20,000 nucleotides of DNA, taken from an uncultured virus (IMG/VR IMGVR_UViG_3300020312_000001). Taxonomy: Duplodnaviria > Heunggongvirae > Uroviricota > Caudoviricetes > Crassvirales. Below, one piece after another: positions 1 to 19,315 of the stretch (its first letter is position 1; the number at the start of each line of letters is the position of its first letter). The notes under the pieces are model-generated. The model was given only the letters and a program-made list of their open reading frames with translations, was not told the origin of the DNA and ran no database searches. A program made the translations under genes and the position numbers. The stretch lies in the IMG/VR virus record IMGVR_UViG_3300020312_000001; one strand, written 5' to 3'.

Positions 1-1
1 T

Positions 2-2917
2 CGTTTAGTTAGACAGTTAAATAGTAAGTTAGCGTCTGATAGTAAGTCTATGGATAAATCTGAAGGTATGTCCGTATTTGACTTTGATGAAACATTGATA
101 ATAGATGGTAAAAACGTAGTGGTAGCAACAAACCCTAAAACAAAAGAAACAGAAGTAATAAGCTCTGAAGATTGGCCAACAAGAGGAACAGAATTAATGG
201 AGTTGGGTTGGAGCATGAACTTTGATGATTTTATAAACGTAAGAGGCGGTGTTAAAGGACCATTGTTTAAAAAACTTTTAAATAGAATAAAAAAATATGG
301 ACCTGATAATAATTTTATATTAACAGCTAGACCTCAAGAATCTGCTGTAGCTATTCACGGCTGGTTAAAATCTAAAGGAGTTAACATACCTTTAAACAAT
401 ATAACTGGATTAGGTAATAGTACTGGTGACGCTAAAGCTCAGTGGATATTAAATAAGTATAAAGAAGGTTATAACGATGTTTATTTTGTAGATGATGCAA
501 TGCAGAACGTTGATGCTGTTAAGCACGTTATGGATCAGTTAGACATAAAAGGTAGTTCTGTCCAAGCTAAAGTAGATTTTAATAAAAATGTAGACGCTGA
601 GTTTAATCAAATACTAGCAGATACTAGTAAGATGGATCCTTTAAAAAGAGTTACAGCTCAAGAAGCTGCTATGCTAGGTAAGAAAAAGGGTGGTTCACTT
701 TTAAAGAACTTTTTTATTCCACCATCCGCTGAAGATTTCAAAGGTTTACTTTATAGGTTTTTAGCTAAAGGAAAAAAGGGAGACCAACATATGGAATTTT
801 TTAAGAAAAATTTACTAGACCCTTACTCTAAAGCATATACCAATTGGAACTCATATAAACAAAACATGTCCAACGAATATAGTACTTTGAAGAAGAGTTT
901 TCCTAATGTAGTTAAGTCAATGAAGGATATTGTTCCGGGTACAAACCTAACTAATGACCACGCTATTAGAGCTTATCTATGGAACAAAGGTGGTTTAGAA
1001 GTACCTGGTTTATCTGATGCTCAAAAGCAAGTTTTAGTAGATCATGTTAGTAACAATCCTGAACTCTCTGGTTTTGCTGATAACCTAAGTAAAATAACTA
1101 GATTAGAAGAAGGATATATAAGACCAGATGAAAATTGGACCGTTAAAAATATTGCACGTGACTTAAACGATATAGTTAAAAACGTTGGTAGAAAACAATT
1201 TTTTGAAGAATGGAAAAACAATAAAGATCAAATATTTTCAAAAGAAAATTTAAATAAAATAGAAGCTATACATGGAACAAACTTCAGGCAAGAGTTGGAG
1301 AAAATGTTGTATAGAATGGAGACAGGTAGTAATAGGGTTACGGGTAAAAATAGACACGTTAATCGTTTTATGGACTGGATAAACGGTTCTGTTGGCGCAG
1401 TGATGTTTTTTAATATGAGATCAGCGAGTCTTCAAACTATATCTATGGCTAATTTTATTAACTGGAAAGATAACAATATATTTGCTGCGTCAAAAGCTTT
1501 TGCTAATCAACCACAATTTTGGAAAGACTTTGCTATGATATTCAACTCTCCAATGTTAAAACAAAGAAGAGCTGGTATGCAAATAGATGTTAACGCTAAT
1601 GAATTAATGGAGGCTTTTTCTGAAGGCAAAAGTAAACCAGAGGCTGTTATAAAATGGATGTTAGAAAAAGGATTCTTACCAACTCAAATGGCTGATAGTT
1701 TTGCTATTGCAATGGGTGGTGCTCCATTTTATAGAAATAGACTAGATAAGTATATAAAGGAGGGTAAACACCCCGAGCAAGCAGCTCAAGATGCTTGGAG
1801 TGATTTTCAAGAAATTGCTGAGGAAACACAGCAGTCGTCTAGACCTGATTTAATATCTAATCAACAAGCTGGACCATTAGGTAGATTAATACTAGCTTGG
1901 CAAAATACTCCAATGCAGATGACTAGATTAACTAAGAAAGCTATATCAGACTTAGTTAATGGTAGAGGTGATCCAAAACAACATATATCAAGAATAATGT
2001 ACTATGGTCTTATTCAGAACTTAATATTTGGAACACTACAAACAGGATTAGGATTCTTACTATTTGGTGATGATGAGGAAGATGAGAAAAGAAAGAAGAT
2101 GTCAACTGAAAGAGTTTTAAACGGAGCTTTAGATACTCTACTTAGAGGTACTGGTGTTTATGGAGCAGCTATATCTACAGTTAAAAATACTATAATGGAG
2201 TTTTATGAGCAAAGAAGAAAAGGTTGGGGAGCTGATCACGGTTACACTGTTATAGAAGCTATAAATTTATCACCACCTATTGGTAGTAAACTGCGTAAAG
2301 TTTACAAAGCTATACAAGCTGACAAATGGAATAGAGGGGTTGGTAAGAAATTAGGTTTTAGAGTTGAAAGTCCAGGTGCTGTTATTGCTGCAAATATTAT
2401 AGAAGCATTAACAAATGCACCTGTTGCTAGATTACTTAACAAAGCTAATCACATAGAAGAAGCTTTAACTGGTAACCATGAGATGTGGCAGAGAATGGCT
2501 TTACTAGGTGGATGGGACATGTGGTCTGTTGGAGTTAAAGACGAAGAGGTAGAGCAAGCTAAAGCAGATATAAAGCGAGAAAAGAAAGAACAAAAAGAAC
2601 TTGAAAAAATACAGAAGAAAAAAGAAAAAGAAGAACAAAAGAAAATAGAAGAACAGAAAGAGAAAGAAAGAAAAGAAAAAGAGGGTATAAAAACAGTTCG
2701 GTGTTCTGGTACAAATTCCAGCGGCAGAAGATGTGGTTTAACAACTGAAACAAAAAAGAAAACCTGGAAATGTCCTCACCACGCTGAGTTTAAAGATGGT
2801 AGTGATACAGATGGGGACGGTATAAAAGAATATAGATGTACAGCTGTGAAATCAAACGGTAAGCGCTGTAAGAACAAAACTGAGAATAAGAACAAGAAAT
2901 GTTATGCTCACCAATAA
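2..2917 (+). CDS. Very large phage protein, 5'-truncated by the window. HAD-superfamily domain, long helical region, Lys/Glu coiled coil and two C-terminal C-x9-C-x10-12-C-x2-H repeats; probable virion/ejected polyvalent protein
   Basis: The frame is open from base 2 to the ATG at 50, so the gene starts upstream. HAD motifs: VFDFDETL (I), ILTAR (II), K in GDAKA (III), YFVDD (IV). C-terminal CSGTNSSGRRC...CPHH and CTAVKSNGKRC...CYAH. Confidence 0.75.
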   Translation, partial: RLVRQLNSKLASDSKSMDKSEGMSVFDFDETLIIDGKNVVVATNPKTKETEVISSEDWPTRGTELMELGWSMNFDDFINVRGGVKGPLFKKLLNRIKKYGPDNNFILTARPQESAVAIHGWLKSKGVNIPLNNITGLGNSTGDAKAQWILNKYKEGYNDVYFVDDAMQNVDAVKHVMDQLDIKGSSVQAKVDFNKNVDAEFNQILADTSKMDPLKRVTAQEAAMLGKKKGGSLLKNFFIPPSAEDFKGLLYRFLAKGKKGDQHMEFFKKNLLDPYSKAYTNWNSYKQNMSNEYSTLKKSFPNVVKSMKDIVPGTNLTNDHAIRAYLWNKGGLEVPGLSDAQKQVLVDHVSNNPELSGFADNLSKITRLEEGYIRPDENWTVKNIARDLNDIVKNVGRKQFFEEWKNNKDQIFSKENLNKIEAIHGTNFRQELEKMLYRMETGSNRVTGKNRHVNRFMDWINGSVGAVMFFNMRSASLQTISMANFINWKDNNIFAASKAFANQPQFWKDFAMIFNSPMLKQRRAGMQIDVNANELMEAFSEGKSKPEAVIKWMLEKGFLPTQMADSFAIAMGGAPFYRNRLDKYIKEGKHPEQAAQDAWSDFQEIAEETQQSSRPDLISNQQAGPLGRLILAWQNTPMQMTRLTKKAISDLVNGRGDPKQHISRIMYYGLIQNLIFGTLQTGLGFLLFGDDEEDEKRKKMSTERVLNGALDTLLRGTGVYGAAISTVKNTIMEFYEQRRKGWGADHGYTVIEAINLSPPIGSKLRKVYKAIQADKWNRGVGKKLGFRVESPGAVIAANIIEALTNAPVARLLNKANHIEEALTGNHEMWQRMALLGGWDMWSVGVKDEEVEQAKADIKREKKEQKELEKIQKKKEKEEQKKIEEQKEKERKEKEGIKTVRCSGTNSSGRRCGLTTETKKKTWKCPHHAEFKDGSDTDGDGIKEYRCTAVKSNGKRCKNKTENKNKKCYAHQ

Positions 2918-2920
2918 ACG

Positions 2921-2932
2921 TGTAATAATATA
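2921..2932 (+). promoter_or_regulatory. Candidate phage promoter element TGTAATAATATA
   Basis: Intergenic, just before the ATG at 2936; 11/12 match to the minus-strand motif at 17885-17896. Confidence 0.45.
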
Positions 2933-2935
2933 ATT

Positions 2936-3076
2936 ATGGCTTATAGTGATAAACATAAGGAGAAGAGAAGTAAACTTGAAGATCAAGTAAGAAAGTATAA
3001 TGATATACAGTACTTCTATAAGGGTACCAAGCAGAGTGGCAAGCTACCTATTTTAGATCAAAAAAGAATAACATAA
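2936..3076 (+). CDS. Small basic hypothetical protein (~46 aa, MAYSDKHKEKRSKLEDQVRKY...)
   Basis: Translated by hand, below the ORF-track cutoff. Fills the gap after the motif. The end coordinate depends on reading the A-run at ~3060 correctly. Confidence 0.45.
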   Translation: MAYSDKHKEKRSKLEDQVRKYNDIQYFYKGTKQSGKLPILDQKRIT

Positions 3077-3086
3077 AAAGTAAAAT

Positions 3087-3266
3087 ATGATAAATTGGAT
3101 TAACTCCTGGAAAGCAGGTAATAAAAAAGATAGATACGAATTAGCATTAAGAATAAGTACATTAACTGTATTTGAATTAATGTTTTGCCCTTGCTGGGTT
3201 TGTGAAAATAAAGGTAAGTGTGCTAGGTTTAGACTGATGATTTTAAACTTTGGATTTGAAATATAA
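3087..3266 (+). CDS. Hypothetical 59-aa protein with CPCWVC...C cluster (MINWINSWKAGNKK...NFGFEI)
   Basis: Translated by hand; AT-rich upstream region; the stop overlaps the next ATG (TAATG). Confidence 0.6.
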   Translation: MINWINSWKAGNKKDRYELALRISTLTVFELMFCPCWVCENKGKCARFRLMILNFGFEI

Positions 3267-3334
3267 TGTGTCCTTGTCCAATATGTATAACAGCTATAGT
3301 TCTTGCAGCATGTAGTTATAAATTATTAAAATGA
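3266..3334 (+). CDS. Putative 22-aa Cys-rich hydrophobic micropeptide MCPCPICITAIVLAACSYKLLK
   Basis: TAATG overlap with the upstream ORF and ATGA overlap with the downstream gene at 3331 suggest translational coupling. Confidence 0.45.
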   Translation: MCPCPICITAIVLAACSYKLLK

Positions 3335-4047
3335 AATGGATAGGTGCTCACATATGGGATTGGGTTTCTAGATTTCGTAACGACGTTTATTTAGAGGATG
3401 TTACTGAATCTACACAGTCTCATATTGTTGGTATAGATTCTGACGGAAAACTATATAAACAAGATCCACCAACAGTACCAGCTACAACAAAGTATGTACA
3501 TCTACCTCCAGTGAGTTATATGTATTACTTATGGTATATTAATTACTACGATCGGTATTACTCGCCTAGTGGATACGCTCAACAATTAGCTAATGCTGGT
3601 ACTGCTATAACAGCTAATATAACTACCTCTAACCAAGCTCAACACGCGGGTTATGTAGCTCCAAGAGCATGTAAGTTGAAGTCTATATCTGCTACTTTTT
3701 ATATGTGGTCAAATTATTTTGGAAGTACAGGTGGTCACACTAATATACCCTTAGAATTTGAAATAATAAAATGGACACCTGGAGATGGCTCAACTAGTAG
3801 TGTAACACCCGCTGTAATGACCGCAACAGATCATGATGGGAATTATCTTGAGTTTAGAATTTATAATAAGAAGTGGGTTGTAACAGATGATGCAAATTCA
3901 ACATTAGCCGCTGGTGATGCATTTAATATATTCTGTAAATGCACGACTCAAGGTATTGTTCAAACTGGAGGTAGTGCGGGTGATACCACCAACACTACAC
4001 AGATCTTGATGAGAGGTGAAATGACATATGAAATAGAACTTACGTAA
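3331..4047 (+). CDS. Putative virion structural/tail-associated protein
   Basis: 238 aa, Thr/Gly/Ser/Tyr-rich with beta-strand character, in the + strand arm. Confidence 0.5.
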   Translation: MKWIGAHIWDWVSRFRNDVYLEDVTESTQSHIVGIDSDGKLYKQDPPTVPATTKYVHLPPVSYMYYLWYINYYDRYYSPSGYAQQLANAGTAITANITTSNQAQHAGYVAPRACKLKSISATFYMWSNYFGSTGGHTNIPLEFEIIKWTPGDGSTSSVTPAVMTATDHDGNYLEFRIYNKKWVVTDDANSTLAAGDAFNIFCKCTTQGIVQTGGSAGDTTNTTQILMRGEMTYEIELT

Positions 4048-4048
4048 C

Positions 4049-4645
4049 ATGGCTTTAACAGATAAAAAATACGAAACAATACATGACAAGACTGGTAACG
4101 ATAAGAATAAAATAAAGGAGGTTCACGATGATAAGTCTTTAGATGTGATAGCTAGCTTTCCTGAAAATAGTGATCCATTTATAACATCGTTAGTTCATCA
4201 AATATCCTTGATGCAGGAAGAATTAGATTATCTCAGAACAGAGATATCAGCTAATAAAGATAAAACTGGGATATCAACTAGTCAAGCAAGTGCTATTACA
4301 GCTAATACAGCTAAGACAGGTATAACAACCCAGCAGGCTACTGACATAACAGATAATAAAAACGAGGCTAAAAGGCTTGATGGTCTTGTTACAACTAACG
4401 CCACTAATATAACAGTTAATGCTAGGAGTATAGGAATAAATAATGCAGCCGCAATAAATGTGGGTGCTTATCCATCAAATACCTTTATGCCAGCAGGTAC
4501 TACTCAGAGTCACGGGTCTGAAATAGTTTATGACACTAAGCAAAAAAAGTATTTTCTAAATATTTATTACATAGAAGATACACCGGCTAAGGGTGGTAAG
4601 AAGGGTCAAAGAATAATAAGAGCAGGACAAATAGAATTAAAATAA
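4049..4645 (+). CDS. Putative fibre-like structural protein with coiled coil and 17-aa repeats
   Basis: Coiled coil LMQEELDYLRTEI followed by KTGISTSQASAITANTA / KTGITTQQATDITDNKN. Confidence 0.5.
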   Translation: MALTDKKYETIHDKTGNDKNKIKEVHDDKSLDVIASFPENSDPFITSLVHQISLMQEELDYLRTEISANKDKTGISTSQASAITANTAKTGITTQQATDITDNKNEAKRLDGLVTTNATNITVNARSIGINNAAAINVGAYPSNTFMPAGTTQSHGSEIVYDTKQKKYFLNIYYIEDTPAKGGKKGQRIIRAGQIELK

Positions 4646-4646
4646 T

Positions 4647-4964
4647 ATGTCAATACATAAAGTAATATCAAATACGGTAGCACAAACACTGGTAGAAAAA
4701 AATACAGCAGTTTTTTTTAAAGGCAGAATTGGTGGTGTTAATAAAATAACAATGACAAACGTTCACGCTAGCGCAGAACCAGTTATGCATTTATTTATAC
4801 AAAACCCAGATGTTAGTCCTGTTGAGACGTACACGATAGCTAAAACAAAAATACCTGTGAACACAACTTTAGTTTTAAGTGATAATGTTAGTTTTGATGG
4901 TACCAAGTATAGTTTAAAAGTTCAAGCAGATGGCACAGTTGATTGCCATGTAATAGTAAAATAA
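4647..4964 (+). CDS. Hypothetical beta-rich protein, possibly structural
   Basis: 105-aa ORF tightly packed in the operon; the stop overlaps the next start (TAATG). Confidence 0.6.
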   Translation: MSIHKVISNTVAQTLVEKNTAVFFKGRIGGVNKITMTNVHASAEPVMHLFIQNPDVSPVETYTIAKTKIPVNTTLVLSDNVSFDGTKYSLKVQADGTVDCHVIVK

Positions 4965-5461
4965 TGAAATTAGAGGTAATTAGAATAAGTAGTGGGTCTG
5001 ATAGTACGAATGGTGTATTATTAGAACTAGATAGATTAGCTTCAAATCCTCACGGAGAAGGATTTAGATGTAAAAGAGAGTTTTTAGCTTACACGCTAGA
5101 AGACGAGCAAAGAGATGAAAAAGTATATGGAGAAACAAGAATACCAAATGGAACTTACAAGTTGGCTCTCAGAAAAACCGGAGGGTATCATCAAAAGTAT
5201 AGTAAGCGTTTTCCAGACATTCATATTGGGATGCTTCACGTTACTAATGTGCCTGGTTTTGAGTATATTCTTATACATTGCGGTAATACCGATGAGCATA
5301 CAGCTGGTTGTCTCCTCGTTGGCGACTCCCAAGAAAACAACCAAATCACGAAGGACGGTTTTATAGGAAAATCGACTCAAGCATATAAAAGAATTTATCC
5401 ACGAATAGCAGAAGCTATTGAATGTGGGGAAGAAGTAACAATAACATATAAGACAATTTAA
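4964..5461 (+). CDS. DUF5675-family protein (L,D-transpeptidase-like H...GC motif; candidate peptidoglycan-active enzyme)
   Basis: YTLED, ETRIPNGTY, VPGFEYILIHCGNTDEHTAGCLLVG. Start placed at ATG 4964 (TAATG overlap) rather than 4943. Confidence 0.8.
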   Translation: MKLEVIRISSGSDSTNGVLLELDRLASNPHGEGFRCKREFLAYTLEDEQRDEKVYGETRIPNGTYKLALRKTGGYHQKYSKRFPDIHIGMLHVTNVPGFEYILIHCGNTDEHTAGCLLVGDSQENNQITKDGFIGKSTQAYKRIYPRIAEAIECGEEVTITYKTI

Positions 5462-5463
5462 TT

Positions 5464-5871
5464 ATGGCAGGATTTAAACTACCAAAAGATCTAGAGGTAA
5501 TAGCAAACGAACACGGCTTAAGCAAAGGTGAGGTTGAACAGTTTGCAAATAAACACAATGTAACTGGTTTAACCAGAGGTGGAGGCGCCCCAACAAAAGC
5601 TTCTAGCCCTGATGATATGATGGCACAAGCTTACGCTAGTAACACAGCTGTTACATCAGATAGAAGATTTTATGCTGATAAAAAAGACGCAGCGGCTGAT
5701 AGGAAGGAAAGAAAAATACATGGCGAAGGGGGTTTGATGGACAAGCTTCATGCAGCAGAACCAGGATCTGGTAGAGCTAAGAGATTAGAAAATAGAATAG
5801 CTAGAAAACAAGGTGCTATTGATAGAAAAAGAAAAAAAGCAAAAAACATAAGAACAGGACCACATTATTAA
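5464..5871 (+). CDS. Basic hypothetical protein (MAGFKLPK...)
   Basis: 135-aa ORF with a Lys/Arg-rich C-terminus, in operon. Confidence 0.65.
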   Translation: MAGFKLPKDLEVIANEHGLSKGEVEQFANKHNVTGLTRGGGAPTKASSPDDMMAQAYASNTAVTSDRRFYADKKDAAADRKERKIHGEGGLMDKLHAAEPGSGRAKRLENRIARKQGAIDRKRKKAKNIRTGPHY

Positions 5872-5889
5872 AAATTAAAAAAATAAGAT

Positions 5890-6081
5890 ATGTATAGAAA
5901 ACAAATGACTCCAGGCATGGCAGCATGCAAGAAGAAATATGGTGGCAAGAAAGATAGCCCATATGACTATTCTTTAGAAATGGGAGCTGGACAATCAGTA
6001 GAAAAAGTACAGCAACCAGGACAAGACTTAGCTTTCGGCTTAACTGAAGCTGGTAAGAAGCTGAAGGAATACGGTATGTAA
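5890..6081 (+). CDS. Small hypothetical protein
   Basis: 63-aa ORF with an A-rich upstream region, in operon. Confidence 0.6.
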   Translation: MYRKQMTPGMAACKKKYGGKKDSPYDYSLEMGAGQSVEKVQQPGQDLAFGLTEAGKKLKEYGM

Positions 6082-6085
6082 TAAA

Positions 6086-7141
6086 ATGAAAAATATATTT
6101 ATATTACTGCTTTTATCTATCAGTGTTATAGGTAATGCACAAATAAAAGACTTTTTTAAATACTCAACGTTTTATACTTCAATGACAATGGGTACGTCTT
6201 TTATAGAAGATGAAGATTATATTGCTGTAAATAAAGGATACGAAGACGTTACTGAAGTTAATCCTTATGATTATAATTTAACGATCGGGTTGAGGAAAAT
6301 CGCCCGTATGGATTATGAGTATAAGGTTAAGACGTGGTATTACGGAACTGAAGATGGAGTAAGTGATAACGTAACAATAGGTAACGCTATTGGTTGGGAG
6401 TATTTACTTAACTATTCTTTTATTAGAGAGCGTGGAGAAAAATTTAATAATCAAAATTTTTGGTTAAGATACTTGGGTAATAGTTGTGTTACTAAATTGC
6501 AATATACAGATAACCAAAGGGTTGATTTAAGATTTGGATCTTTTGATACTAGGTTTAGGTTAACTAAGGGCAATTGGGACTTCACTTTAGGGGCTGTAGC
6601 TAGAATACATCCCGTATATGGTGTAACACCAATAGATGATTTTTGGGTACCAGGAGAAAACACGTTTCAAGATTTAGCTGAAGACTTTGGGTATGCAGCG
6701 CAACCTTGGATTCAAGGATTTTATATCGACCAGAATTGGTACGATGTTAGTGGTGGAGATTCCGTACTTATCGCTACCTCAAACGACGAGTTTTTCCACC
6801 ACTATTTCGGAGACGCAGTTGCTAGATTTAATGAGCGTGAACTTGAGAAATTAGGTTTACAAAAAGAACTAAGCGCTGTTGTCGGTGTGGCCTACTATAA
6901 GTACACACCTAAATTATGGCTACATATTTGGGCTAACTGCTTACCTTTACATTATGGTTTAGATGAGTATTCATTTGAATATGGAGAGGAAAAATACGAT
7001 AATATAGAGTGGGATGCTGGTATTGTATTTGGCTCAAGGATTACTAAGTCACTTGGGATGTTTATTGAGGGAACTCATATGAAGTACTGGGACAAACCAG
7101 TATATGAAGTGAAGTTTGGTTTTAACTATTTAATATTTTAA
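6086..7141 (+). CDS. Exported protein, probable outer-membrane beta-barrel
   Basis: Sec signal MKNIFILLLLSISVIGNA|Q; many aromatic-rich alternating strands; C-terminal strand YEVKFGFNYLIF ending in Phe (BAM beta-signal-like). Confidence 0.7.
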   Translation: MKNIFILLLLSISVIGNAQIKDFFKYSTFYTSMTMGTSFIEDEDYIAVNKGYEDVTEVNPYDYNLTIGLRKIARMDYEYKVKTWYYGTEDGVSDNVTIGNAIGWEYLLNYSFIRERGEKFNNQNFWLRYLGNSCVTKLQYTDNQRVDLRFGSFDTRFRLTKGNWDFTLGAVARIHPVYGVTPIDDFWVPGENTFQDLAEDFGYAAQPWIQGFYIDQNWYDVSGGDSVLIATSNDEFFHHYFGDAVARFNERELEKLGLQKELSAVVGVAYYKYTPKLWLHIWANCLPLHYGLDEYSFEYGEEKYDNIEWDAGIVFGSRITKSLGMFIEGTHMKYWDKPVYEVKFGFNYLIF

Positions 7142-7143
7142 TT

Positions 7144-7524
7144 ATGCCGTTTAAAATGAGAGGCTTTACGCCATATAAATTAACAGACGAAGATGAGAAT
7201 ACATCTGGAATACAAGTAGACTCTAAAGACAAAGATAAAGAGTTTACAAAAGAAAACTTACCTTATTATGATGAAGTATCTGCCGTTCAAGTGGGTGATG
7301 ATGGAGGTAAGTTTGTTCACACTATAACAGATGATGAATATTACGACCCCAATGAACCTAATTTTGTGGGCGATTTTCAACCAGGTATAAAAAGAGATAC
7401 TATACATGTTCAAGAAAGATACCCTGAGGGCCATTTAATAGATGAAACGGAATGGGAAGAAGGCGAAGCTTTAAAGAACGCTGAAATAGAAGATAAAGAG
7501 TTTAGAGATAAAATAAAAGAATAA
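7144..7524 (+). CDS. Acidic hypothetical protein with MPFKMRGFTPYK N-terminal motif
   Basis: 126 aa, D/E-rich; N-terminus resembles that of 8207..8737. Confidence 0.65.
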   Translation: MPFKMRGFTPYKLTDEDENTSGIQVDSKDKDKEFTKENLPYYDEVSAVQVGDDGGKFVHTITDDEYYDPNEPNFVGDFQPGIKRDTIHVQERYPEGHLIDETEWEEGEALKNAEIEDKEFRDKIKE

Positions 7525-8204
7525 TGAAAAAATATATTATAATACTATTTGCGTTTATTGGCTCGTTCGTTAATGCGCAAGGATACGACTTTCAACAGTT
7601 ATGTTTAAACTGTGCAGAACAAAATGGTTTTTATTGTGGAGATGATCCAGCAAACTGGACGCAGTATTCACCAGAGGGGTGTGTGCCAAATGGTGCTGGT
7701 GGATTAGAATACTTAAATGATGGATGGGAAGATTGCGTAGATGGCTCAGATGAGAATGGAGCTGTACCAACCACAGCTGCGGATTGCGGTCCAGTTGGTC
7801 CTGGTCCCTGTGATACTGTTTTTGTTGAGATACCAATTATACAATATGAATATATATTTGACACAATCGTTGAATATGAGACCGTTGTTGAATACGACAC
7901 AATCGTTGAGACTGAATACGTATATAACGTTGATACGGTTTATGCTGACGTCTTAGATACAATGTTTATTGATGTTATTGAGTATGTTGAGATATTCGTT
8001 GTAGACACTGTAATAGAAATACAATATGAAGAAATTGTAGAATATATCGATTGTGATTCAGGTTTACCTTGTAATTCAAGCATTATGGAAATAGTGGATA
8101 AATCAAAACAAAACTCTGTAATATATAATATTAAAGGGCAAGCAATTTTAACAAGAGAAGGATTGTACATAGAGAACGGAAAAATTTATTATAAAACTAA
8201 ATAG
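7524..8204 (+). CDS. Exported protein with LDL-receptor class A-like module, DT-V/I repeats and T9SS CTD-like C-terminus
   Basis: Signal MKKYIIILFAFIGSFVNA|Q; FYC...GCVP...DGWEDCVDGSDE; repeated DTV/DTI; C-terminal VIYNIKGQ...GLYIENGKIYYK. Confidence 0.7.
   Translation: MKKYIIILFAFIGSFVNAQGYDFQQLCLNCAEQNGFYCGDDPANWTQYSPEGCVPNGAGGLEYLNDGWEDCVDGSDENGAVPTTAADCGPVGPGPCDTVFVEIPIIQYEYIFDTIVEYETVVEYDTIVETEYVYNVDTVYADVLDTMFIDVIEYVEIFVVDTVIEIQYEEIVEYIDCDSGLPCNSSIMEIVDKSKQNSVIYNIKGQAILTREGLYIENGKIYYKTK
7860..7909 (+). repeat. Direct repeat GACACAATCGTTGA (7860-7873, 7896-7909) within an 18-nt periodic coding repeat
   Basis: Encodes DTIVEY/ETVVEY/DTIVET. Confidence 0.8.
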
Positions 8205-8206
8205 TT

Positions 8207-8737
8207 ATGGCATTCAAAATGAAGGGTTTTAGCCCATTTACAAAGAAAACAGGAAATCCTGATTTAGAACAAGGATTAGGTAATGATGAGGATATGAGAG
8301 AATATCTGGAAAGAAAAGAAAAAGAAAAAGCTGGCGCGGCTAAAACACCACCGCCGCGTGAAAAGGAAGAGTTCAAAGAGCCAGAGGTAGAGGAGAATCC
8401 TGAAGAAGAAACTAAACCTAAAAGCTCAAGATGGGAAGAAAGAGCTGATGTGGAAGAAAAAACTAAAGATGAGGAAGATGATGATTTACCTTTTAAAATG
8501 AGCGTGTCGTTTAGTAGTCCATTTACAAAAACAAAAGATGATCCAGTTGATAAAAATTGGAAAGAAAATCAAAGTATAATGGATGACTTAAAATCTCTTA
8601 AAGAGGATTTAAGGGACGCTAAAACTCCAGAAGAAAAAAGAAAAATTCAAATGGACATAGAGCAAACTCAGAAGATAATCGACAAGGGTTACGAAGAGAG
8701 TAGTCAACTAAACCCTAATAATCCAGATAGAGACTAA
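8207..8737 (+). CDS. Highly charged hypothetical protein with two copies of the FKM...SPFTK motif
   Basis: MAFKMKGFSPFTKK at the N-terminus and PFKMSVSFSSPFTKTK internally (~8489). Confidence 0.7.
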   Translation: MAFKMKGFSPFTKKTGNPDLEQGLGNDEDMREYLERKEKEKAGAAKTPPPREKEEFKEPEVEENPEEETKPKSSRWEERADVEEKTKDEEDDDLPFKMSVSFSSPFTKTKDDPVDKNWKENQSIMDDLKSLKEDLRDAKTPEEKRKIQMDIEQTQKIIDKGYEESSQLNPNNPDRD

Positions 8738-9081
8738 TGGCAAAAGAATTATCAGAAGATAGTAAGTTTAATATAAGTATTAAAACTTTAATCAGTATAG
8801 TTGTAGCTGTTGCTACTGTTATATCAGCTTATTTTGGTTTAATGAGCACTATTAATTCTAAGTTTGGAGAACTAGAACTCAAAGTTAATGAAGCTTTAGA
8901 ATTACCAAAGCCTGGAACAGGTATATATACAATTGATATGGGTGATCCAGCGGCTACTAATACTTGGCCTCCAACTAGAATGGAGTTTAATATGAAAGAT
9001 CAAATGGCTCGTAATCAAATAGACATGTTGATTAAAGAGATAGAGGAAATTAATGAAGAAATTAAACTATTAAGAAAATGA
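8737..9081 (+). CDS. Single-pass membrane protein with coiled-coil segments
   Basis: TM segment TLISIVVAVATVISAYFGLM; C-terminal heptads IDMLIKEIEEINEEIKLL. Confidence 0.7.
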   Translation: MAKELSEDSKFNISIKTLISIVVAVATVISAYFGLMSTINSKFGELELKVNEALELPKPGTGIYTIDMGDPAATNTWPPTRMEFNMKDQMARNQIDMLIKEIEEINEEIKLLRK

Positions 9082-9476
9082 TAAAACAAATAGATATATC
9101 AAACTATCTCTACGTGTTAATAATGCTACTTGCTTTTGGTTGCGGAACAGCTATAGGGCAAGAGTTTATAAATGGTGATTTTGAAGATCGCATAGCTAAA
9201 GATGTTGTGGCTGTAGAGTTTTGGGCTGACTGGAACTCTGCTAATCAATTTAATGACTTAGCTAAATTAAAAGAGTGTGAAAAATATAGATTAGATATTA
9301 TGGCGAATTCTGACACTCAAGCCAAGTATAACGTATCTGCTATACCCACTGTTATTATATTTGATAATGGTGTAGAAAAAGAAAGGTTTAACGCTAATAT
9401 TATGTTTCAATTAGAAGCTGATAAAAAAACTATACAGAATTCTATTGACACAATAATACTAAATAAATTTCAATAA
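9078..9476 (+). CDS. Exported thioredoxin-fold protein lacking the CxxC active site
   Basis: Hydrophobic N-terminus; VAVEFWADWNSAN in place of VDFWAxWCGPC; KYNVSAIPTVIIFDNGVEKERF cis-Pro region. Confidence 0.8.
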   Translation: MIKQIDISNYLYVLIMLLAFGCGTAIGQEFINGDFEDRIAKDVVAVEFWADWNSANQFNDLAKLKECEKYRLDIMANSDTQAKYNVSAIPTVIIFDNGVEKERFNANIMFQLEADKKTIQNSIDTIILNKFQ

Positions 9477-9478
9477 TT

Positions 9479-9655
9479 ATGAGTAGTCCATTTCAAAAAT
9501 CATTTTCATCTAAATCACCAATGAAAAACGACAGTTGGTGGTCTAAGATTAAAAAACAATTTACTCCAACAGATTATTCTAGTTCTTCTAACGTGAAACG
9601 TAACGTAAAAACAAAAGTGAACGAATCTGGAATGCCTTCTAGAAGAGGTAAATAA
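9479..9655 (+). CDS. Small basic Ser-rich protein (58 aa, MSSPFQKSFSSKSPMK...)
   Basis: Translated by hand; last ORF before the terminator; carries SPF/SPMK motifs like its neighbours. Confidence 0.6.
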   Translation: MSSPFQKSFSSKSPMKNDSWWSKIKKQFTPTDYSSSSNVKRNVKTKVNESGMPSRRGK

Positions 9656-9688
9656 AAAAAAGGGAGCCGAAGCTCCCTTTATTATTTT
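9654..9688. terminator. Bidirectional intrinsic terminator
   Basis: Hairpin AAAGGGAGC-CGAA-GCTCCCTTT (9659-9680) with an A-run on the left and a T-rich run on the right, between convergent operons. Confidence 0.9.
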
Positions 9689-9866
9689 AACTATTTTTTA
9701 TAGTCTGAATTTGTTTCCTCACATTCTGAGCAGCTTCCTTAATTGTCTGCATACTCTTTCTAGCTCTAGTTCCAGCTGATTTATTTCCACCCATAAACTT
9801 TTCTATTTCCTCGTGAGCGCTGTGCATTTCATCTTGCATAACGTCTAATAATTCTTCTAAATTCAT
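9687..9866 (-). CDS. Histone H1-like (Hc1-family) nucleoid protein, 59 aa
   Basis: Hand translation MNLEELLDVMQDEMHSAHEEIEKFMGGNKSAGTRARKSMQTIKEAAQNVRKQIQTIKNS; GNKxAGTRARK is the Hc1-family signature. Confidence 0.8.
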   Translation of the reverse strand: MNLEELLDVMQDEMHSAHEEIEKFMGGNKSAGTRARKSMQTIKEAAQNVRKQIQTIKNS

Positions 9867-9884: not shown

Positions 9885-11750
9885 TTAAACAACTTCACAT
9901 GATCCACCAGCACAAGCTAACTCGCCTGATAAATCTGTGTTATCTTCAGCTTCAATAACTTTCGTTAAATCTACATTAGATAATACTTTGGACATCTTAT
10001 TGTATTTAGCTTCGTCAATGTCCTCAAACGGAGCCTGAGTATATGTACCACCATCATATGGTAATACAGATAACCCGTTGTAATATTCTCTATTTTCCCA
10101 CATCCAATCTCCTGCTTTCTTCCATTCATTCTCTTTTAAAGATATCGTAGCTGAAACATTATGAGTATTACTACCTCGTCTATGACCAGGTCGTATCCAC
10201 TCTTGTGCAACACGTTTAACTCTTTCAAGAGTATCAAACGGTGATTCAGTTCTAAGTATTGAACCATCAGGTGCTTTTTGTGGTATGGAAATAACAGCAG
10301 TATCGTGAGGTCTGAAGTACTCATCTTCAATCAATTCCTTATGGTTATTTAATAAATACCCATATATAGCCTCATTCTTCCCTACGCGCATTCTACGGAC
10401 ATAATAATCATTATGCCAAGCATGAATACCCGAAGATGTTCCGAGGACCAGAGATGTCGTCCCTGCAGGTTTTACAGTTGTACATCTAGCTGATGAATTA
10501 ATCCCTATTAGTTTCGCTACTCGTGTATTTTCCTTTGTCACGATATTTGCAGCGGCCTTCATATCCATTTGGAGCACAGCGGCACTCCCGATTCCTGTCA
10601 TTGACACACCTATAAGAGCGTCTTTTTCTGTTGTTTCTTTCCATATTTCTCTAAGATAGTGGAAGTCAGTATATCCAGCTTGTAATGTCCCTATAAACGC
10701 TGCGGCTTTAACTCTAGCGTTTAAATCATCTTGATCTTTAACATTAGATACATTAACTTCACAAAGGTTACAGAACTGGAAGGGCCTAAGCGCTATCTCA
10801 CAGCAAGGGTTTGTACCCCAGTCTTTGTCATTGTTAAGATATATACCAGGCTCTCCAGCTCCAGATAGTTCAACTCGTTTCCATAGGTCCATAAAAAACT
10901 CTTTAGTTATTTTATGTCTCATTAAAACAGCTGAGTTATTAGCTCTACCTCTTTGTGGATTAGTTTCCCACCAATTACCAGACTTACAAGATATCATATC
11001 GTCGTCAGTAGCAGTAAACAAACTGATTAAAGCAGCTCGTCTAATACCACCAGCTAATACAGCGTCGGCTATATGACATATAATATCGTGTACTTCTAGT
11101 GATGTTAATGTTGAACCATCCTCCTTTGCTTCTAAAATACCCTCGACCTTTATTAAACATTCTTTTAAAGGCTGTGGACCAGGTGCTTTACCACCTGATG
11201 TCACTAGCCTAGCACCTTTAGGTCTGATGTCAGTATAATCAAATACTATTCTTGAAGCTCTTTTCTCTCCAAGATAAGATCTAATCAATACTTTAACAGC
11301 ATCAGACCAACCCTCAATTGAATCACCTATAACAAACCTTCTAGTTCTATTCCTAAAAGGTTTCATTAAAAACGGTAAACTCTTTATATGGTGCTGTTGA
11401 ACTGAATATCCAACTCCACATCCTGATAACAATAGAAACATTATCTCGTTGAACGCATCTAAGCTATCAACAGGTAGATAAGAACAGTTGTATAATCTAT
11501 TAGGAGATATTTCAATTGGCTTTCCAGCAAATTGTAAACTTCTCATAGATGGTAATATCTGTTTTGTAAACACATAACTATACGCTTTTCTTATTTCAAC
11601 CTCCAACTCCGGGTATTTCTTAATATGCATTGCCATATTTCTATCCACTAATTCTTCCCAAGTTTCTCTACGTTGTAGTTCAGGAATATATTTAGCGTAT
11701 TTCATATGAACAGTGATATCAGATAAAATGTTACTATTAATTTCTTTCAT
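9885..11750 (-). CDS. nrdJ: Class II (adenosylcobalamin-dependent) ribonucleotide reductase, monomeric RTPR-like
   Basis: LYNCSY, TNPCCEI, CNLCEV, TTVKPAGTTS, C-terminal ACAGGSCE; no beta-subunit gene adjacent. Confidence 0.9.
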   Translation of the reverse strand: MKEINSNILSDITVHMKYAKYIPELQRRETWEELVDRNMAMHIKKYPELEVEIRKAYSYVFTKQILPSMRSLQFAGKPIEISPNRLYNCSYLPVDSLDAFNEIMFLLLSGCGVGYSVQQHHIKSLPFLMKPFRNRTRRFVIGDSIEGWSDAVKVLIRSYLGEKRASRIVFDYTDIRPKGARLVTSGGKAPGPQPLKECLIKVEGILEAKEDGSTLTSLEVHDIICHIADAVLAGGIRRAALISLFTATDDDMISCKSGNWWETNPQRGRANNSAVLMRHKITKEFFMDLWKRVELSGAGEPGIYLNNDKDWGTNPCCEIALRPFQFCNLCEVNVSNVKDQDDLNARVKAAAFIGTLQAGYTDFHYLREIWKETTEKDALIGVSMTGIGSAAVLQMDMKAAANIVTKENTRVAKLIGINSSARCTTVKPAGTTSLVLGTSSGIHAWHNDYYVRRMRVGKNEAIYGYLLNNHKELIEDEYFRPHDTAVISIPQKAPDGSILRTESPFDTLERVKRVAQEWIRPGHRRGSNTHNVSATISLKENEWKKAGDWMWENREYYNGLSVLPYDGGTYTQAPFEDIDEAKYNKMSKVLSNVDLTKVIEAEDNTDLSGELACAGGSCEVV

Positions 11751-11893
11751 TATCGTTTCTTTCTTTTAAATATTGTTAAACAAAAATCTACAAGTGGTAG
11801 ATATATTACATGGTTATGTTTATTTCGTTCGGTATACGTTCTCATTCCAAAAAGTACACCAGGATAAAATCCTACGCTAAATTCCCAATTCAT
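11750..11893 (-). CDS. Small hypothetical protein (47 aa, MNWEFSVGFYPGVLFGMRTY...)
   Basis: Translated by hand; fills the gap exactly, with its stop overlapping the nrdJ start. Confidence 0.6.
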   Translation of the reverse strand: MNWEFSVGFYPGVLFGMRTYTERNKHNHVIYLPLVDFCLTIFKRKKR

Positions 11894-11894
11894 A

Positions 11895-12335
11895 TTATTT
11901 ATTTTTAGTTATTAACTCTATTACCTGATCACATTCTTTCTGGTTTTGAGGCTTATATAAAGTCACATAAGGTCTTGAAATATTAATCATTCTCTTAAAC
12001 AGTTTCCATCTCATTGGAAAACTTTCGTTTGCTCGACCTTTACACTCTATTATAAAGTTCTCATTTACAAAATCTGGTGTGTATTTAATTGGTAATACTT
12101 TCTTATCTCCTCTGTTTTTAAATTCTCCTTTTCCATTAGATTGTCTTTCATAACTATCAATTTCAAAATTAAATCCGTCTATTAAGGTGAATGTTTCTCC
12201 TTCGTATTCAGCTTTTATCTTAGCTTTCTTTAAAGCTTGATACATATACCTTTCTAAACTAGAGGCGAAGGTTATGCCGTCAAACACAACCTTCTTAGAC
12301 CTAACAGGCCCTTTCTTTTTACGTCTCTTTCTCAT
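11895..12335 (-). CDS. PD-(D/E)XK nuclease, T7 endonuclease I/DUF1064-like (candidate Holliday junction resolvase)
   Basis: DGITFASSLE, KYTPDF, IIECKG motifs. Confidence 0.75.
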   Translation of the reverse strand: MRKRRKKKGPVRSKKVVFDGITFASSLERYMYQALKKAKIKAEYEGETFTLIDGFNFEIDSYERQSNGKGEFKNRGDKKVLPIKYTPDFVNENFIIECKGRANESFPMRWKLFKRMINISRPYVTLYKPQNQKECDQVIELITKNK

Positions 12336-12618
12336 TTAACATATCTTTAAGTTCTTCTTGTGCAGTTTGTATGTATAATACCGCGTCCATAAGTTCTTCT
12401 TGAATATCAATTAAATACTTCATGAGACCTTTTATCTTCGTTGTTCTCTCTTCATGAAGAGTCGTGCCGTATTTTTCATAACCAGCGTCTGAACGCTCTT
12501 TAAATTTATCAACAACACGTTTTACAACAGGATCTCGAAACTCAGGACTTAAATCGCAATTCAAGCCGTTGATGGCTTCACTAAACCCTTGTGCATCCAT
12601 TATTTCTCTACTACTCAT
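12319..12618 (-). CDS. Small all-alpha protein, possible MazG/dimeric dUTPase-like NTP pyrophosphatase
   Basis: KYGTTL...IQEELMDAVLY, an EExxD acidic helix; adjacent to the MazG gene. Confidence 0.5.
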   Translation of the reverse strand: MSSREIMDAQGFSEAINGLNCDLSPEFRDPVVKRVVDKFKERSDAGYEKYGTTLHEERTTKIKGLMKYLIDIQEELMDAVLYIQTAQEELKDMLNEKET

Positions 12619-12621
12619 ATA

Positions 12622-13434
12622 TTAATCTTTTACAAATGTTCCATTTTTCATTTTACCAGTTCTTTTACTTATAACATCATAAGCTGATTCAACACATTCT
12701 TCAATTGTTAAACCACAAAGTTCTGCTAAGTTAGTTAATACAACAACCATATCACCGATACCATCTTTTATCTCAGCATCATCTTGTTTTAATATAGCTC
12801 TACCAACTTCACCAGCTTCTTCCATTAATTTGATATATTGGGTTTTAGGATCTCCATTAGCATATATACCACGATCTTCAGCCCAATCTCTAATTTTATC
12901 AAAGTAAAAAACCACACCATCATCATGCTCGTAGAAGTCTTCTTCTTTAAATGGAAGTTCATCTCTCTTGTTGTCTAAATACTTGATCATAGCTTTGTTA
13001 TAAACATAACATCTATCATTGTTAAACATGGATGTCTTAGCGTTTTTAACTATCCATTTAGTTAGATCAGTATCTAAATAAACACTACCATGCTCTGTAT
13101 CCCAGCGCATTTCTAGATTATCCATCAACCGACCTTTGAGCTTGTTGAGTGGACACGGAAAAGTAGTAGTCTGTTCCGTTACATTTATCTTCATATTCTT
13201 TAATTTTAAATTAACACTCAGTTCATTATATGGAATAAGATCAACTTTGTAACCATATTCCTTTTGTAATTCTATTTCACGTTTAGATATATAATTTATA
13301 TCGTCTGATGACTCTAGAATCTCATACTCACCCACCTCATAACCTTGTTGACATTCAACTCTATTGTATAGGTCGTTTGTAACACCGATCTTTTTTCCTG
13401 GTATGTGGTATATTACATATTTATTATCTATCAT
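12622..13434 (-). CDS. Multidomain protein: N-terminal GIY-YIG-like region, unknown middle domain, C-terminal MazG-like NTP pyrophosphohydrolase
   Basis: YVIYHIPGKKIGVT..LYNR; C-terminal KLMEEAGEV...EIKDGIGDMVVVL. Confidence 0.75.
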   Translation of the reverse strand: MIDNKYVIYHIPGKKIGVTNDLYNRVECQQGYEVGEYEILESSDDINYISKREIELQKEYGYKVDLIPYNELSVNLKLKNMKINVTEQTTTFPCPLNKLKGRLMDNLEMRWDTEHGSVYLDTDLTKWIVKNAKTSMFNNDRCYVYNKAMIKYLDNKRDELPFKEEDFYEHDDGVVFYFDKIRDWAEDRGIYANGDPKTQYIKLMEEAGEVGRAILKQDDAEIKDGIGDMVVVLTNLAELCGLTIEECVESAYDVISKRTGKMKNGTFVKD

Positions 13435-14084
13435 AGCTTTTCAATTATATTATCGTAAAGATGTAAGTTGTGTGCAAAGTGGTAATAACTACCTATTAGT
13501 AAACCTGTCTCTGTAGCAACTAATTCCTGTAACTTAGAGAAACAGTATTGATCGTTGCAGAAACCGTACCATAAATCATTAGAACGCATTACAACACACA
13601 TGTCAAGATGTTGAGCTTGAATCGTAAACTGAACAGCATAAGTACATGGAGTGTCATTTGTATAGTGCCCGTAGTTTATTTCCTTAGCATCATATATACT
13701 GATAGCAGCTTGTCTAGTTCTAGGATTTGTTTTAAGCATTGCTATAACATTATCTAGTTGGTTGTCTCTTTTCCATTGCCAACCATAATTAGAATTAACA
13801 TTACCATCTTTGTCAGCCATACGTTTCCATATCTCAGGTATTTTACCATATAATTCACCCAGCTTATTAATGTTTCTATCACCAGATAAATACCATTGCC
13901 ATTCAGCTTCAGCATAATCCCATTTCCAATTACGATCTTCATCATCAATCAAGTTGTCCATTGGGTCATTTATATAAAAACCAACATTAAACAAAGCTTG
14001 AGTGTCATCAAATTCAACACCATAATCTTTTATTAATCTTTTGTAATGCTTAAAAGCTTGATTTGCATTTCTAAATTTAATCAT
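13431..14084 (-). CDS. Thymidylate-synthase-fold enzyme, dCMP hydroxymethylase-like
   Basis: NSNYG, TRQA, DTPCT (catalytic Cys), MRSNDLWYGFCND, YYHFAHNLHLY. Start placed at ATG 14084 (MIKFRN). Confidence 0.8.
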   Translation of the reverse strand: MIKFRNANQAFKHYKRLIKDYGVEFDDTQALFNVGFYINDPMDNLIDDEDRNWKWDYAEAEWQWYLSGDRNINKLGELYGKIPEIWKRMADKDGNVNSNYGWQWKRDNQLDNVIAMLKTNPRTRQAAISIYDAKEINYGHYTNDTPCTYAVQFTIQAQHLDMCVVMRSNDLWYGFCNDQYCFSKLQELVATETGLLIGSYYHFAHNLHLYDNIIEKL

Positions 14085-14343
14085 CTTTTTTATATTTATT
14101 ATAATAGTAATCACAGTACTCATACACTTTGTGCATGATGCTTTCTTTTTTATATCTATTGGGATCAGTGTTTGTTTTACCGTTCATTGTTATTTCCACC
14201 GTCCAATTACCATAGTCTTGTCCCCAAAGAGGAATCGGTCCTATTTTTATACCATTACTAAAGCACCAGTTGTATGATTTTAAATCATCATCCACTCTGC
14301 AGTGTTTAGGGTATTTTCCGTGTTCCTCTTTTAACTTTCCCAT
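14077..14343 (-). CDS. Hypothetical protein
   Basis: 88-aa ORF overlapping both neighbours in the operon. Confidence 0.6.
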   Translation of the reverse strand: MGKLKEEHGKYPKHCRVDDDLKSYNWCFSNGIKIGPIPLWGQDYGNWTVEITMNGKTNTDPNRYKKESIMHKVYEYCDYYYNKYKKDD

Positions 14344-16052: not shown

Positions 16053-16055
16053 ATA

Positions 16056-16361
16056 TTAAAACGGTAAATCCTCTGGTTTAACAGCTGCTGGTTCAGCTGT
16101 AGGTTGATTATCTCTTGGAGCTGGTTCAACGTTTTGACCGTTACTCCAAATTACTCTAGCATTACCAAGGTAAGTTTTAGCCTGTTTAGACTCTCTTTCC
16201 TCCTTAGTTTGCTCAACAACCACTGGACCTTGATTTCCGAATTGATCGACTTCATCGTTCAGTGTTATTGTTATCGGTAGGTACTTTCCTTTCTTCCCTA
16301 CGAATATTTTATCTTTCGGTATTTCAGAAAGATTTATAGAAGTTTTTATTATACTTGCCAT
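16056..16361 (-). CDS. Probable single-stranded DNA-binding protein
   Basis: Beta-rich core, Pro/Ala linker and EDLPF C-terminal tail; lies between recombination genes and the helicase. Confidence 0.65.
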   Translation of the reverse strand: MASIIKTSINLSEIPKDKIFVGKKGKYLPITITLNDEVDQFGNQGPVVVEQTKEERESKQAKTYLGNARVIWSNGQNVEPAPRDNQPTAEPAAVKPEDLPF

Positions 16362-16363
16362 AT

Positions 16364-16558
16364 TTATCCATTTATTAAGTTAACTAATTCTTTTACTTTA
16401 TCTACAGACGCCCCGGTCGTCCGTCTAAAATTATCATATTTTTTATGATAAGGGTGTAATTTATCCGGGGAGCTCGCATTAAAGTAAAAATTACTACTAT
16501 TTGCTCTAAATCTCTTTCCGGATATAGCACATGTTTTCATCTTATAAGCTGTTGCCAT
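16364..16558 (-). CDS. Small basic hypothetical protein
   Basis: 64-aa ORF in operon. Confidence 0.6.
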   Translation of the reverse strand: MATAYKMKTCAISGKRFRANSSNFYFNASSPDKLHPYHKKYDNFRRTTGASVDKVKELVNLING

Positions 16559-16562
16559 AGGT

Positions 16563-17297: not shown

Positions 17298-17862
17298 TTC
17301 TTTCTTTTAAATGTATATCTAACTCTGCCATTTGCACTGAGTTAATACTGTATTTAGACTCGATGGCAGATATAGCCCCTCCATTTTTAATAAAATCAAT
17401 AGCTTTATCTAACTGCGAATCATTCATAGGTACTTTATTTGGTTTAGCTTTATTCACAAGTTGAGCTGCTTTCCCATGACTATTAGTCGAGTCAGCATCA
17501 GCTGTATCATCGATTAGAAATAAGTTGCCTAATGCATACTTTTTCCCGTAAGATGAAGCTGCTCCAAATTGTTGAGCCGTTTGCATACCTTTTTGTTGAA
17601 GGTCTACACCGACTATTGCTGTAGCTGTGATTGAATTTTCGCCATCAGAAATTGTGGCTGTTGATTTAATTGTAGGAGGTGTATCGTGAATCAATTCTTC
17701 ATCGACTCTTACTGACACACTTTCTCTAAGTAAGAAAGGCTTTACTGCCTCGAGTATATCTTCGGCTTTACGGAAATAATACTTCCCGAAAGAATTATAC
17801 GAAGATTTTTTTGCTTTTAATTCAGTCTGTATGACTGCTAATTTTTGGTTTAAATTCTTCAT
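17290..17862 (-). CDS. ERF-family single-strand annealing recombinase
   Basis: KSSYNSFGKYYFRKAEDILEAVKP, QQFGAASSYGKKYALGNLFLIDDTADAD. Confidence 0.9.
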   Translation of the reverse strand: MKNLNQKLAVIQTELKAKKSSYNSFGKYYFRKAEDILEAVKPFLLRESVSVRVDEELIHDTPPTIKSTATISDGENSITATAIVGVDLQQKGMQTAQQFGAASSYGKKYALGNLFLIDDTADADSTNSHGKAAQLVNKAKPNKVPMNDSQLDKAIDFIKNGGAISAIESKYSINSVQMAELDIHLKERNG

Positions 17863-17884
17863 GGTTTATTGGTTTTGGTCTATA

Positions 17885-17916: not shown

Positions 17917-17935
17917 TTAGTGAATCACTCCTAAC

Positions 17936-19305: not shown

Positions 19306-19315
19306 GTTCACTGAC

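Follow-up and report, generated by a model that had tools for sequence, protein, structure and literature searches.

Four co-oriented genes at positions 6086–9476 of IMG/VR virus record IMGVR_UViG_3300020312_000001 (a stretch of 20,000 nucleotides from an uncultured virus of the Crassvirales, here called the window) belong to a phage-only envelope module that has been retained across a large group of uncultured marine phages, whose hosts are of the Flavobacteria type. At the core of the module is an invariant trio comprising an outer-membrane β-barrel protein (6086), a membrane helix (8737), and an exported thioredoxin-fold protein (9078), each named after the first position of its gene. A fourth gene, encoding the acidic protein 7524, is a frequent add-on adjoining the barrel. 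We propose, with a probability of roughly 0.4, that the trio performs or gates the outer-membrane step of lysis and replaces spanins in this role. The module is a concrete candidate for the means by which Bacteroidota phages get through the outer membrane of the host. In the available text of a survey of 677 phages, 91 were without a spanin, including a Bacteroides phage and two Croceibacter phages, and the question of another outer-membrane route was raised (Kongari 2018, PMC6139136). Spanins are rarely apparent in flavobacterial phage genomes. No published description of the module was found in narrow full-text searches of the open-access literature on lysis and spanins. New here are the split between trio and add-on, the three-way replacement of endolysins beside the module, a compact block in a divergent relative, and an embedded open reading frame (ORF) evaluated with controls.

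Co-inheritance of the envelope genes

The four genes are real, carry export signals and the folds described below, are strictly co-inherited, and have lysis genes as neighbours. Co-inheritance was followed in two sets of loci, one seeded with the barrel (57 viral contig loci, 33–96% identity to 6086) and the other with 9078 (80 loci); many contigs are common to both, so the two samples of phages are not independent. Among barrel-seeded loci with at least 1 kb of downstream DNA, 7524 was the next gene in 48/49, with a gap of 1–3 nucleotides in 24 of these 48. Where at least 5 kb was available downstream (n = 25), 7524 was found in 25/25 loci, 8737 in 24/25, and 9078 in 24/25. The exceptions in the barrel-seeded set were L057, without 7524, and L037, without the 8737/9078 pair. 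Loci seeded with 9078 that extended at least 5 kb upstream contained the barrel in 65/65 cases, the membrane helix in 65/65, and 7524 in 62/65; the 8737/9078 pair was thus not found without the barrel. One subclade keeps the barrel, 8737, and 9078, while 7524 is missing. The gene order recurs across dozens of contigs, beyond chance. A first-pass annotation had described this span as a cassette of four genes with export features whose homologues should co-occur. The four genes lie where it placed them, and both seeded sets bear out the co-occurrence in related phage contigs, although the span holds six genes, of which two (7144–7524 and 8207–8737) are variable inserts.

Within the trio, 8737 and 9078 are adjacent in 43/43 loci, and the start of 9078 overlaps the stop of 8737 by 4 nucleotides, an overlap shared by 38/43 loci; from this arrangement the pair is read as translationally coupled. 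Protein 8737 is 75–93% identical in the near clade, compared with 50–66% for the large virion-type protein g50, a degree of conservation expected of a core function and not of an optional extra. Strict co-inheritance, conservation above that of g50, and the lysis neighbourhood described below argue for a core late envelope function. The module is common: public metagenomes yielded 1355 clusters of the thioredoxin-fold gene at 90% identity, with ocean surveys as the source of many, and the barrel has 232 representatives at 50% identity. Neither the region (as DNA or protein) nor the barrel or 8737 matched any of 50,697 deposited phage records.

The outer-membrane barrel

Protein 6086 (6086–7141, plus strand, 351 residues) is predicted to be an outer-membrane β-barrel from its signal peptide, which is cut before Gln19, its C-terminal Phe, and its structural model. 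The N-terminus MKNIFILLLLSISVIGNA is a hydrophobic leader with the cut between NA and Q, and the protein ends in NYLIF. A small residue followed by Gln occurs within residues 13–45 in 50/50 homologues, and the last residue is Phe in 44/50 and Leu in 5/50. The protein thereby combines a signal peptide, a modelled barrel fold, and a C-terminal aromatic residue, the features by which outer-membrane barrels are recognized, and the barrel proposed in the first-pass annotation is what the model returns. DSSP assigned about 15 strands to the model, and the best structural matches are barrels that we take to be 12-stranded.

TM-scores of the structural matches were low (0.2–0.35), and small barrels of every kind appear in the same match lists. 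This lack of specificity bears on the idea that the barrel is a dedicated channel that secretes or anchors 7524, comparable to a split autotransporter or to FapF with its amyloid subunit. Since barrels also occur without 7524 in one subclade, we regard such a channel as quite improbable. A Tsx-like nucleoside or nutrient pore that feeds the nucleotide metabolism of the phage is more improbable still: Tsx scored less than 2 Z units above unrelated small barrels, at 6% identity, and the barrel gene lies in the late/lysis operon, whereas the nucleotide genes are on the other strand.

No Pfam, PHROG, or NCBIfam entry matched 6086, and none of 31 members of its family matched a Pfam barrel family (PorP/SprF, OmpA-like, and others) at E ≤ 1. 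The family comprised 305 clusters at E ≤ 0.001 in a word-indexed search and 232 representatives at 50% identity in an exhaustive search. The nearest Atlas clusters were 100% viral, BFVD held one homologue, and a scan of 185,579 species genomes, sensitive to close relatives only, returned none. The family therefore looks virus-only by sequence comparison. Outer-membrane proteins encoded by phages are known, among them lambda Lom and the porins of prophages, and BFVD rows named porin, OmpC, or OmpW belong to uncultured phages and to Aeromonas phage phiAS5. The 6086 gene is likewise a phage gene for a barrel in the host outer membrane. In contrast to these sporadic, host-family-related cases, it belongs to the core set and goes with lysis genes, and the searches above found no Pfam or cellular relative.

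The membrane helix and the thioredoxin-fold protein

Protein 8737 (8737–9081, plus strand, 114 residues) matches phrog_20984, a family of unknown function, and contains one hydrophobic span at about residues 17–38. Its alignment shows a conserved N-terminal motif (M.KELSEDSKF..S.KTL, with E4, E7, S14, K16, T17, and L18 invariant), a loop rich in Pro, and, at the C-terminus, an amphipathic helix whose hydrophobic residues are spaced by 3–4 positions as judged by eye. A role as inner-membrane anchor is plausible.

Protein 9078 (9078–9476, plus strand, 132 residues) has a signal-like N-terminus, with a leader that ends in G before an invariant Gln28, and a Gln-type signal peptidase I site is present in 44/44 homologues. 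The protein matches Pfam Thioredoxin PF00085 (E = 1.4e-7, 31.8 bits against a cut-off of 23.5 bits), and its best PDB matches are thioredoxins (3e-7). At the position of WCGPC the window protein reads WNSAN, and CxxC occurs in 0/44 homologues. The protein therefore cannot be a thiol-disulfide oxidoreductase, and the earlier description of a redox-dead thioredoxin holds for both fold and active site. Compared with PF00085 thioredoxins, 9078 shares the fold by sequence and differs in being exported and in lacking CxxC throughout its 44 homologues. We also considered 9078 as a lipoprotein because of a lipobox-like AFGC, and rejected this assignment: a lipobox-like motif occurs in 14/44 homologues, and the Cys is not conserved.

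In Bacteroidota, the substrates of signal peptidase I follow a Gln rule, according to the accessible part of the source (PMC5837995). The leaders of 6086, 7524, and 9078 fit it, since a small residue followed by Gln is found at the expected place in all homologues of the three proteins (49/49 for 7524). Each of the four proteins carries an export or membrane signal, and, in line with the first-pass annotation, none resembles a cytoplasmic or virion protein. That they are nonetheless components of the particle is suggested by tail-fibre-like genes nearby, which in some loci lie inside the module. We consider this extremely improbable, given cleavable signal peptides on three of the four proteins, a membrane span in the other, and the outer-membrane fold and C-terminal Phe of the barrel.

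The lysis neighbourhood

A candidate endolysin of the DUF5675 family lies upstream of the barrel (4964–5461, plus strand, by family match). Its ORF can be called from a TTG at 4943; homologues begin at the ATG at 4964 (MKLEVIR), which is probably the true start. Searches by sequence found no PDB relative of DUF5675. Across loci, three unrelated endolysin types occur at the module: DUF5675, a 200-residue protein matching the PHROG family phrog_33083, annotated as endolysin (8.5e-15), and Peptidase_M15_3 (5.3e-9). The 200-residue protein occupies the same place in loci without DUF5675, and in other loci a Peptidase_M15_3 protein follows directly after 9078. An endolysin type was located at most 1.6 kb upstream of the barrel in 39/53 loci, and in others just downstream of the thioredoxin gene; any of the three was present in 60/65 loci of the 9078-seeded set, within the DNA available. 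In L247, a divergent relative, a single block runs from the barrel through the membrane helix, the thioredoxin, and an unknown gene to an M15 peptidase and then a holin-family gene, and tblastn positions in L240, L242, and L244–L246 are similar.

Holin candidates also adjoin the module. The gene after the endolysin belongs to the GTA_holin_3TM family in L051 and L053 (8.7e-7 and 4.7e-5), and a 70-residue two-helix gene, present in 29/65 loci and absent from the window, stands directly before 8737 in many of them. Because endolysin types replace one another beside the module and holin candidates adjoin it, we assign the module to the lysis neighbourhood. The first-pass annotation had offered superinfection exclusion, receptor masking, nutrient uptake, or non-canonical lysis as functions; this neighbourhood favours the last of them over the other three.

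The proximity of 8737 to a holin-like gene would also suit a role in lysis timing, in which 8737 and 9078 form a periplasmic pair that regulates the holin, and a signal from outside is sensed through the barrel. In phage T4, the antiholin RI acts on the holin T in this manner of control. The small size of 8737, the strong conservation of its N-terminal motif on the cytoplasmic side, its position directly after the two-helix gene, and its translational coupling to 9078 would all agree with a regulator. However, database comparison gave no similarity to known antiholins, and the strict coupling to an outer-membrane barrel is without parallel in known lysis inhibition, which leads us to consider a timing role unlikely.

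An ORF embedded in the endolysin gene

The window contains no separate holin-like gene. Within the DUF5675 gene, an ORF in the +1 frame (5115–5366, plus strand) specifies a protein of 83 residues that contains two hydrophobic spans and ends in the basic sequence KKTTKSRRTVL. This frame is open for 73–92 codons in 34/34 homologues of the gene, compared with about 30 codons on average in synonymous shuffles, in which no gene attained the observed length in more than 0.5% of trials. In control gene families of the same loci, the longest +1 runs had medians of 18–58 codons and minima of 12–38, and the second endolysin type showed no excess (median 36 against 43.6 in shuffles). The median hydropathy of the +1 frame was 2.21 against 1.05 in shuffles, and for every gene at most 1.75% of shuffles attained the observed value. 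Silent differences were not fewer within the overlap (0.37 inside, 0.32 outside), which counts against the ORF. The case for it thus rests on stop avoidance and hydrophobicity. No Pfam family, and hence no known holin family, matched at E ≤ 0.01. In small size, membrane spans, charged C-terminus, and location in the lysis cluster, the ORF has the traits of holins, and we regard it as a candidate out-of-frame embedded holin.

Embedded lysis genes have precedents. In Staphylococcus phage 187, a holin lies within the endolysin gene, and in lambda, Rz1 lies within Rz. Like Rz1, the product of 5115–5366 would be a small membrane protein read from the +1 frame of a lysis gene; it differs in sitting in another gene family and in matching no known holin family. 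The available text of the spanin survey counts 182 embedded spanin pairs (Kongari 2018, PMC6139136). Two further observations concern such frames. The N-terminus of the ORF contains two or three closely placed Met codons (MKKYM in the window, MNNEMKKYM in relatives). In L247 (7990–8193, and at the same place in L240, L242, and L244–L246), the +1 frame of the M15 endolysin gene is open for 68 codons, against about 27 in shuffles, and encodes a hydrophobic peptide; M15 homologues outside the L247 subclade have no such open frame.

A possible outer-membrane step of lysis

We hypothesize the following sequence of events. Late in infection, the host Sec pathway, signal peptidase I, and the β-barrel assembly machinery (BAM) would bring each protein to its site: the outer membrane for the barrel, the periplasm for 9078, and the inner membrane for 8737. 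The cell wall would then be removed by the holin candidate together with the DUF5675 peptidase, after which the 8737/9078 pair could reach the barrel, and the outer membrane would be destabilised or opened. The trio would in this way stand in for spanins, which these phages appear to lack. The topology of 8737, the contacts among the proteins, when they act, and what they do to the outer membrane are inferred in this scheme. The four proteins may form one structure spanning the envelope, as supposed in the first-pass annotation.

The two-component spanins, such as lambda Rz/Rz1, are the closest comparison. Like them, 8737/9078 is a coupled gene pair in a lysis neighbourhood; 8737 appears to be built like an i-spanin, in that helices read from the alignment come after an N-terminal span, and the presumed task, the outer-membrane step of lysis, is the same. 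The differences lie in the parts. Where a spanin pair has a short, proline-rich lipoprotein, 9078 is a folded thioredoxin domain that lacks a conserved lipobox; 8737 has no cysteines for disulfides and a short periplasmic reach; and an invariant outer-membrane barrel is added. We examined whether the trio could itself be classed as a spanin and rejected this, as it has no conserved lipoprotein and no cysteines and includes an integral barrel as a third part.

Several observations weigh against a lysis function. The lipobox-like motif of 9078, confined to a minority of homologues as given above, does not make it a conserved lipoprotein. Disulfide links are held general in two-component spanins in the available text of the survey (Kongari 2018, PMC6139136), yet Cys is absent from 8737 in 44/44 homologues. 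Beyond its span, 8737 has about 75 further residues (about 55 in distant relatives), which may be too few to bridge the periplasm; the charges that flank the span do not decide its orientation. In the window, the endolysin is not next to the barrel, as two unrelated genes lie between them, and elsewhere tail-fibre-like genes together with metabolic add-ons (a nuclease, a 2OG oxygenase, and PhoH) lie inside the module, as in a general hot spot for inserts. No endolysin was seen in the available DNA of 5/65 loci. Finally, 7524 resembles a cell-surface protein, which a lysis role leaves unexplained.

In its boldest form, the proposal is that the barrel, 8737, and the dead thioredoxin constitute a third device for breaching the outer membrane, beside spanins and disruptin peptides, in which the barrel is installed by host BAM and which is accompanied by a holin encoded out of frame (+1) within the gene of a new type of endolysin. 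We put this forward tentatively, as possible but clearly less probable than an outer-membrane role of the trio as such. If true, very abundant marine flavobacterial phages use such a device, and it would perhaps explain how spanin-less phages of Bacteroidota complete lysis.

The acidic protein 7524 and possible surface remodelling

Protein 7524 (7524–8204, plus strand, 226 residues) is an exported acidic protein with a Cys-rich head, a repeat stalk, and a C-terminal tail of 43 residues. It begins with MKKYIIILFAFIGSFVNA, a hydrophobic leader with the cut between NA and Q, and ends with VIYNIKGQAILTREGLYIENGKIYYKTK. The head contains an acidic calcium-cage motif (D.W.DC.D..DE) in 46/49 homologues. 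Pfam Ldl_recept_a (PF00057) matched 20/25 family members at E ≤ 1, with a best value of 0.0017 and all below the gathering score, and a PDB profile gave E = 0.09 for this module. The stalk varies in length and is rich in D-(S/T)-hydrophobic triplets (median 6, against 0.9 in shuffles), with 47/49 proteins holding more than any shuffle. This triplet is the general O-glycosylation site of Bacteroidota, and 7524 is probably glycosylated.

A conserved CDSGLPC loop precedes the tail, which carries Tyr..Gly, Gly-x-Tyr-Ile, and a basic end. Short type IX secretion signals, as described in the accessible text of one study, have 40–51 residues, with motif B (Tyr..Gly), motif D (Gly-x-Tyr-Ile), and motif E (a terminal basic residue) (Ye 2025, PMC11969387). 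The tail of 7524 falls within the range of these C-terminal domains (CTDs) of Prevotella intermedia, shows the three motifs, and belongs to a protein with an N-terminal signal peptide; in contrast to the Prevotella proteins, 7524 is encoded by a phage and matches no curated CTD model. Our own regular expression for B..D..E matched 38/49 homologues, with the motifs compared with the published text only. The curated CTD models (TIGR04183 and Pfam Por_Secre_tail) did not match the window protein at E ≤ 1, nor did such models match any of 25 family members (Pfam at E ≤ 1, NCBIfam at E ≤ 10), and a search with the C-terminal 50 residues retrieved no proteins of greater length. The type IX secretion cargo seen in the first-pass annotation is supported by short-CTD-like motifs and not by curated models, and we treat type IX secretion as a lead based on motif likeness.

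These features suit a different purpose for the module, remodelling of the host surface, in which the barrel would be the outer-membrane anchor or partner and 7524 a calcium-binding head displayed on a glycosylated stalk, with 8737 and 9078 as helpers or engaged in a separate task. The aim could be a block to superinfection, masking of a receptor, or changed adhesion. The host-type character of 7524 (signal cleavage before Gln, the excess of triplets, and the tail with motifs B, D, and E) and its close pairing with the barrel speak for it, and Porphyromonas phages, according to the part of the literature available, encode unknown proteins with Gln-rule signal peptides that have been read as possible modifiers of the outer membrane. 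Set against this, the module looks like a set of core genes, not like a sporadic extra, and lies in a late operon with lysis genes; the subclade without 7524 keeps the barrel, 8737, and 9078, so that the barrel does not serve 7524 solely; and no curated type IX model matches. We consider surface remodelling doubtful, though the strongest competitor of the lysis proposal. If 7524 does decorate the surface, it would exemplify a phage that routes one of its own proteins through host export and glycosylation, and possibly through type IX secretion.

Genomic context and host

The window (~34% G+C) consists of two convergent gene blocks. The late operon (1–9476, plus strand) ends at a terminator-like, two-way hairpin recognized in the sequence (9659–9680). 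The opposite block (9885–20000, minus strand) is the replication module by family matches, encoding a class II ribonucleotide reductase, a DUF1064 nuclease, MazG, thymidylate synthase, a primase-helicase, an exonuclease, Erf, and a sigma factor. The nearest match of the primase-helicase is Cellulophaga phage phi10:1 (42%), followed by Tenacibaculum and Flavobacterium phages, and on the strength of this relatedness the host is probably a marine member of the Flavobacteriia. The sequencing runs that contain the stretch are marine metagenomes, and the nearest cultured phages infect Cellulophaga and Flavobacterium.

Variable inserts and further genes

The two inserts of the module, at 7144–7524 (MPFKMRGFTPYK) and 8207–8737 (MAFKMKGFSPFTKK), both on the plus strand, belong by motif to one family with the N-terminus MAFKMKGFSxF(T/K). 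Lysine-rich small variable genes with the common N-terminus MAFKMKG(F/W)S(P/A/G)F(T/K)K occur at other loci (e.g. L001:9703-9897 and L002:9056-9388), amounting to 99/1333 plus-strand ORFs in 36/57 loci and 0/1593 minus-strand ORFs. At the DNA level, their start, ATGGC.TTTAAAATGAAAGG, touches the preceding stop codon, and the exact pattern was found in 110 IMG/VR stretches. An insert hot spot lies between the homologues of 7524 and 8737 in related loci (e.g. L013:9844-10248, L014:10315-10956, L014:11179-11835, L041, L044, and L046), where a staphylococcal-type nuclease, a 2OG-Fe(II) oxygenase, PhoH, tail-fibre-like genes, and Gln-rich coiled-coil proteins with LDTSNPY are inserted.

The gap between endolysin and barrel holds two small, variable, basic genes (5464–5871 and 5890–6081, plus strand), which match no family and are not conserved across loci. 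The product of the second shares an N-terminal R-K-x-M-T-P-G with small basic proteins in L006, L015, and L026, a second recurring start motif. At the left end of the window, 50–2917 (plus strand) encodes a protein of at least 955 residues without a family match; at its C-terminus, a Lys/Glu-rich stretch precedes two repeats of the Cys-x-Cys...Cys-x-His type that resemble zinc knuckles. The last gene of the replication block (9687–9866, minus strand, 59 residues) matches the histone H1-like Hc1 (Pfam PF07432, E = 9e-18). Between the thioredoxin gene and the terminator, a Ser/Lys-rich ORF of 58 residues (9479–9655, plus strand) begins with MSSPFQK, which looks like a degenerate SPF(T/K)K motif.

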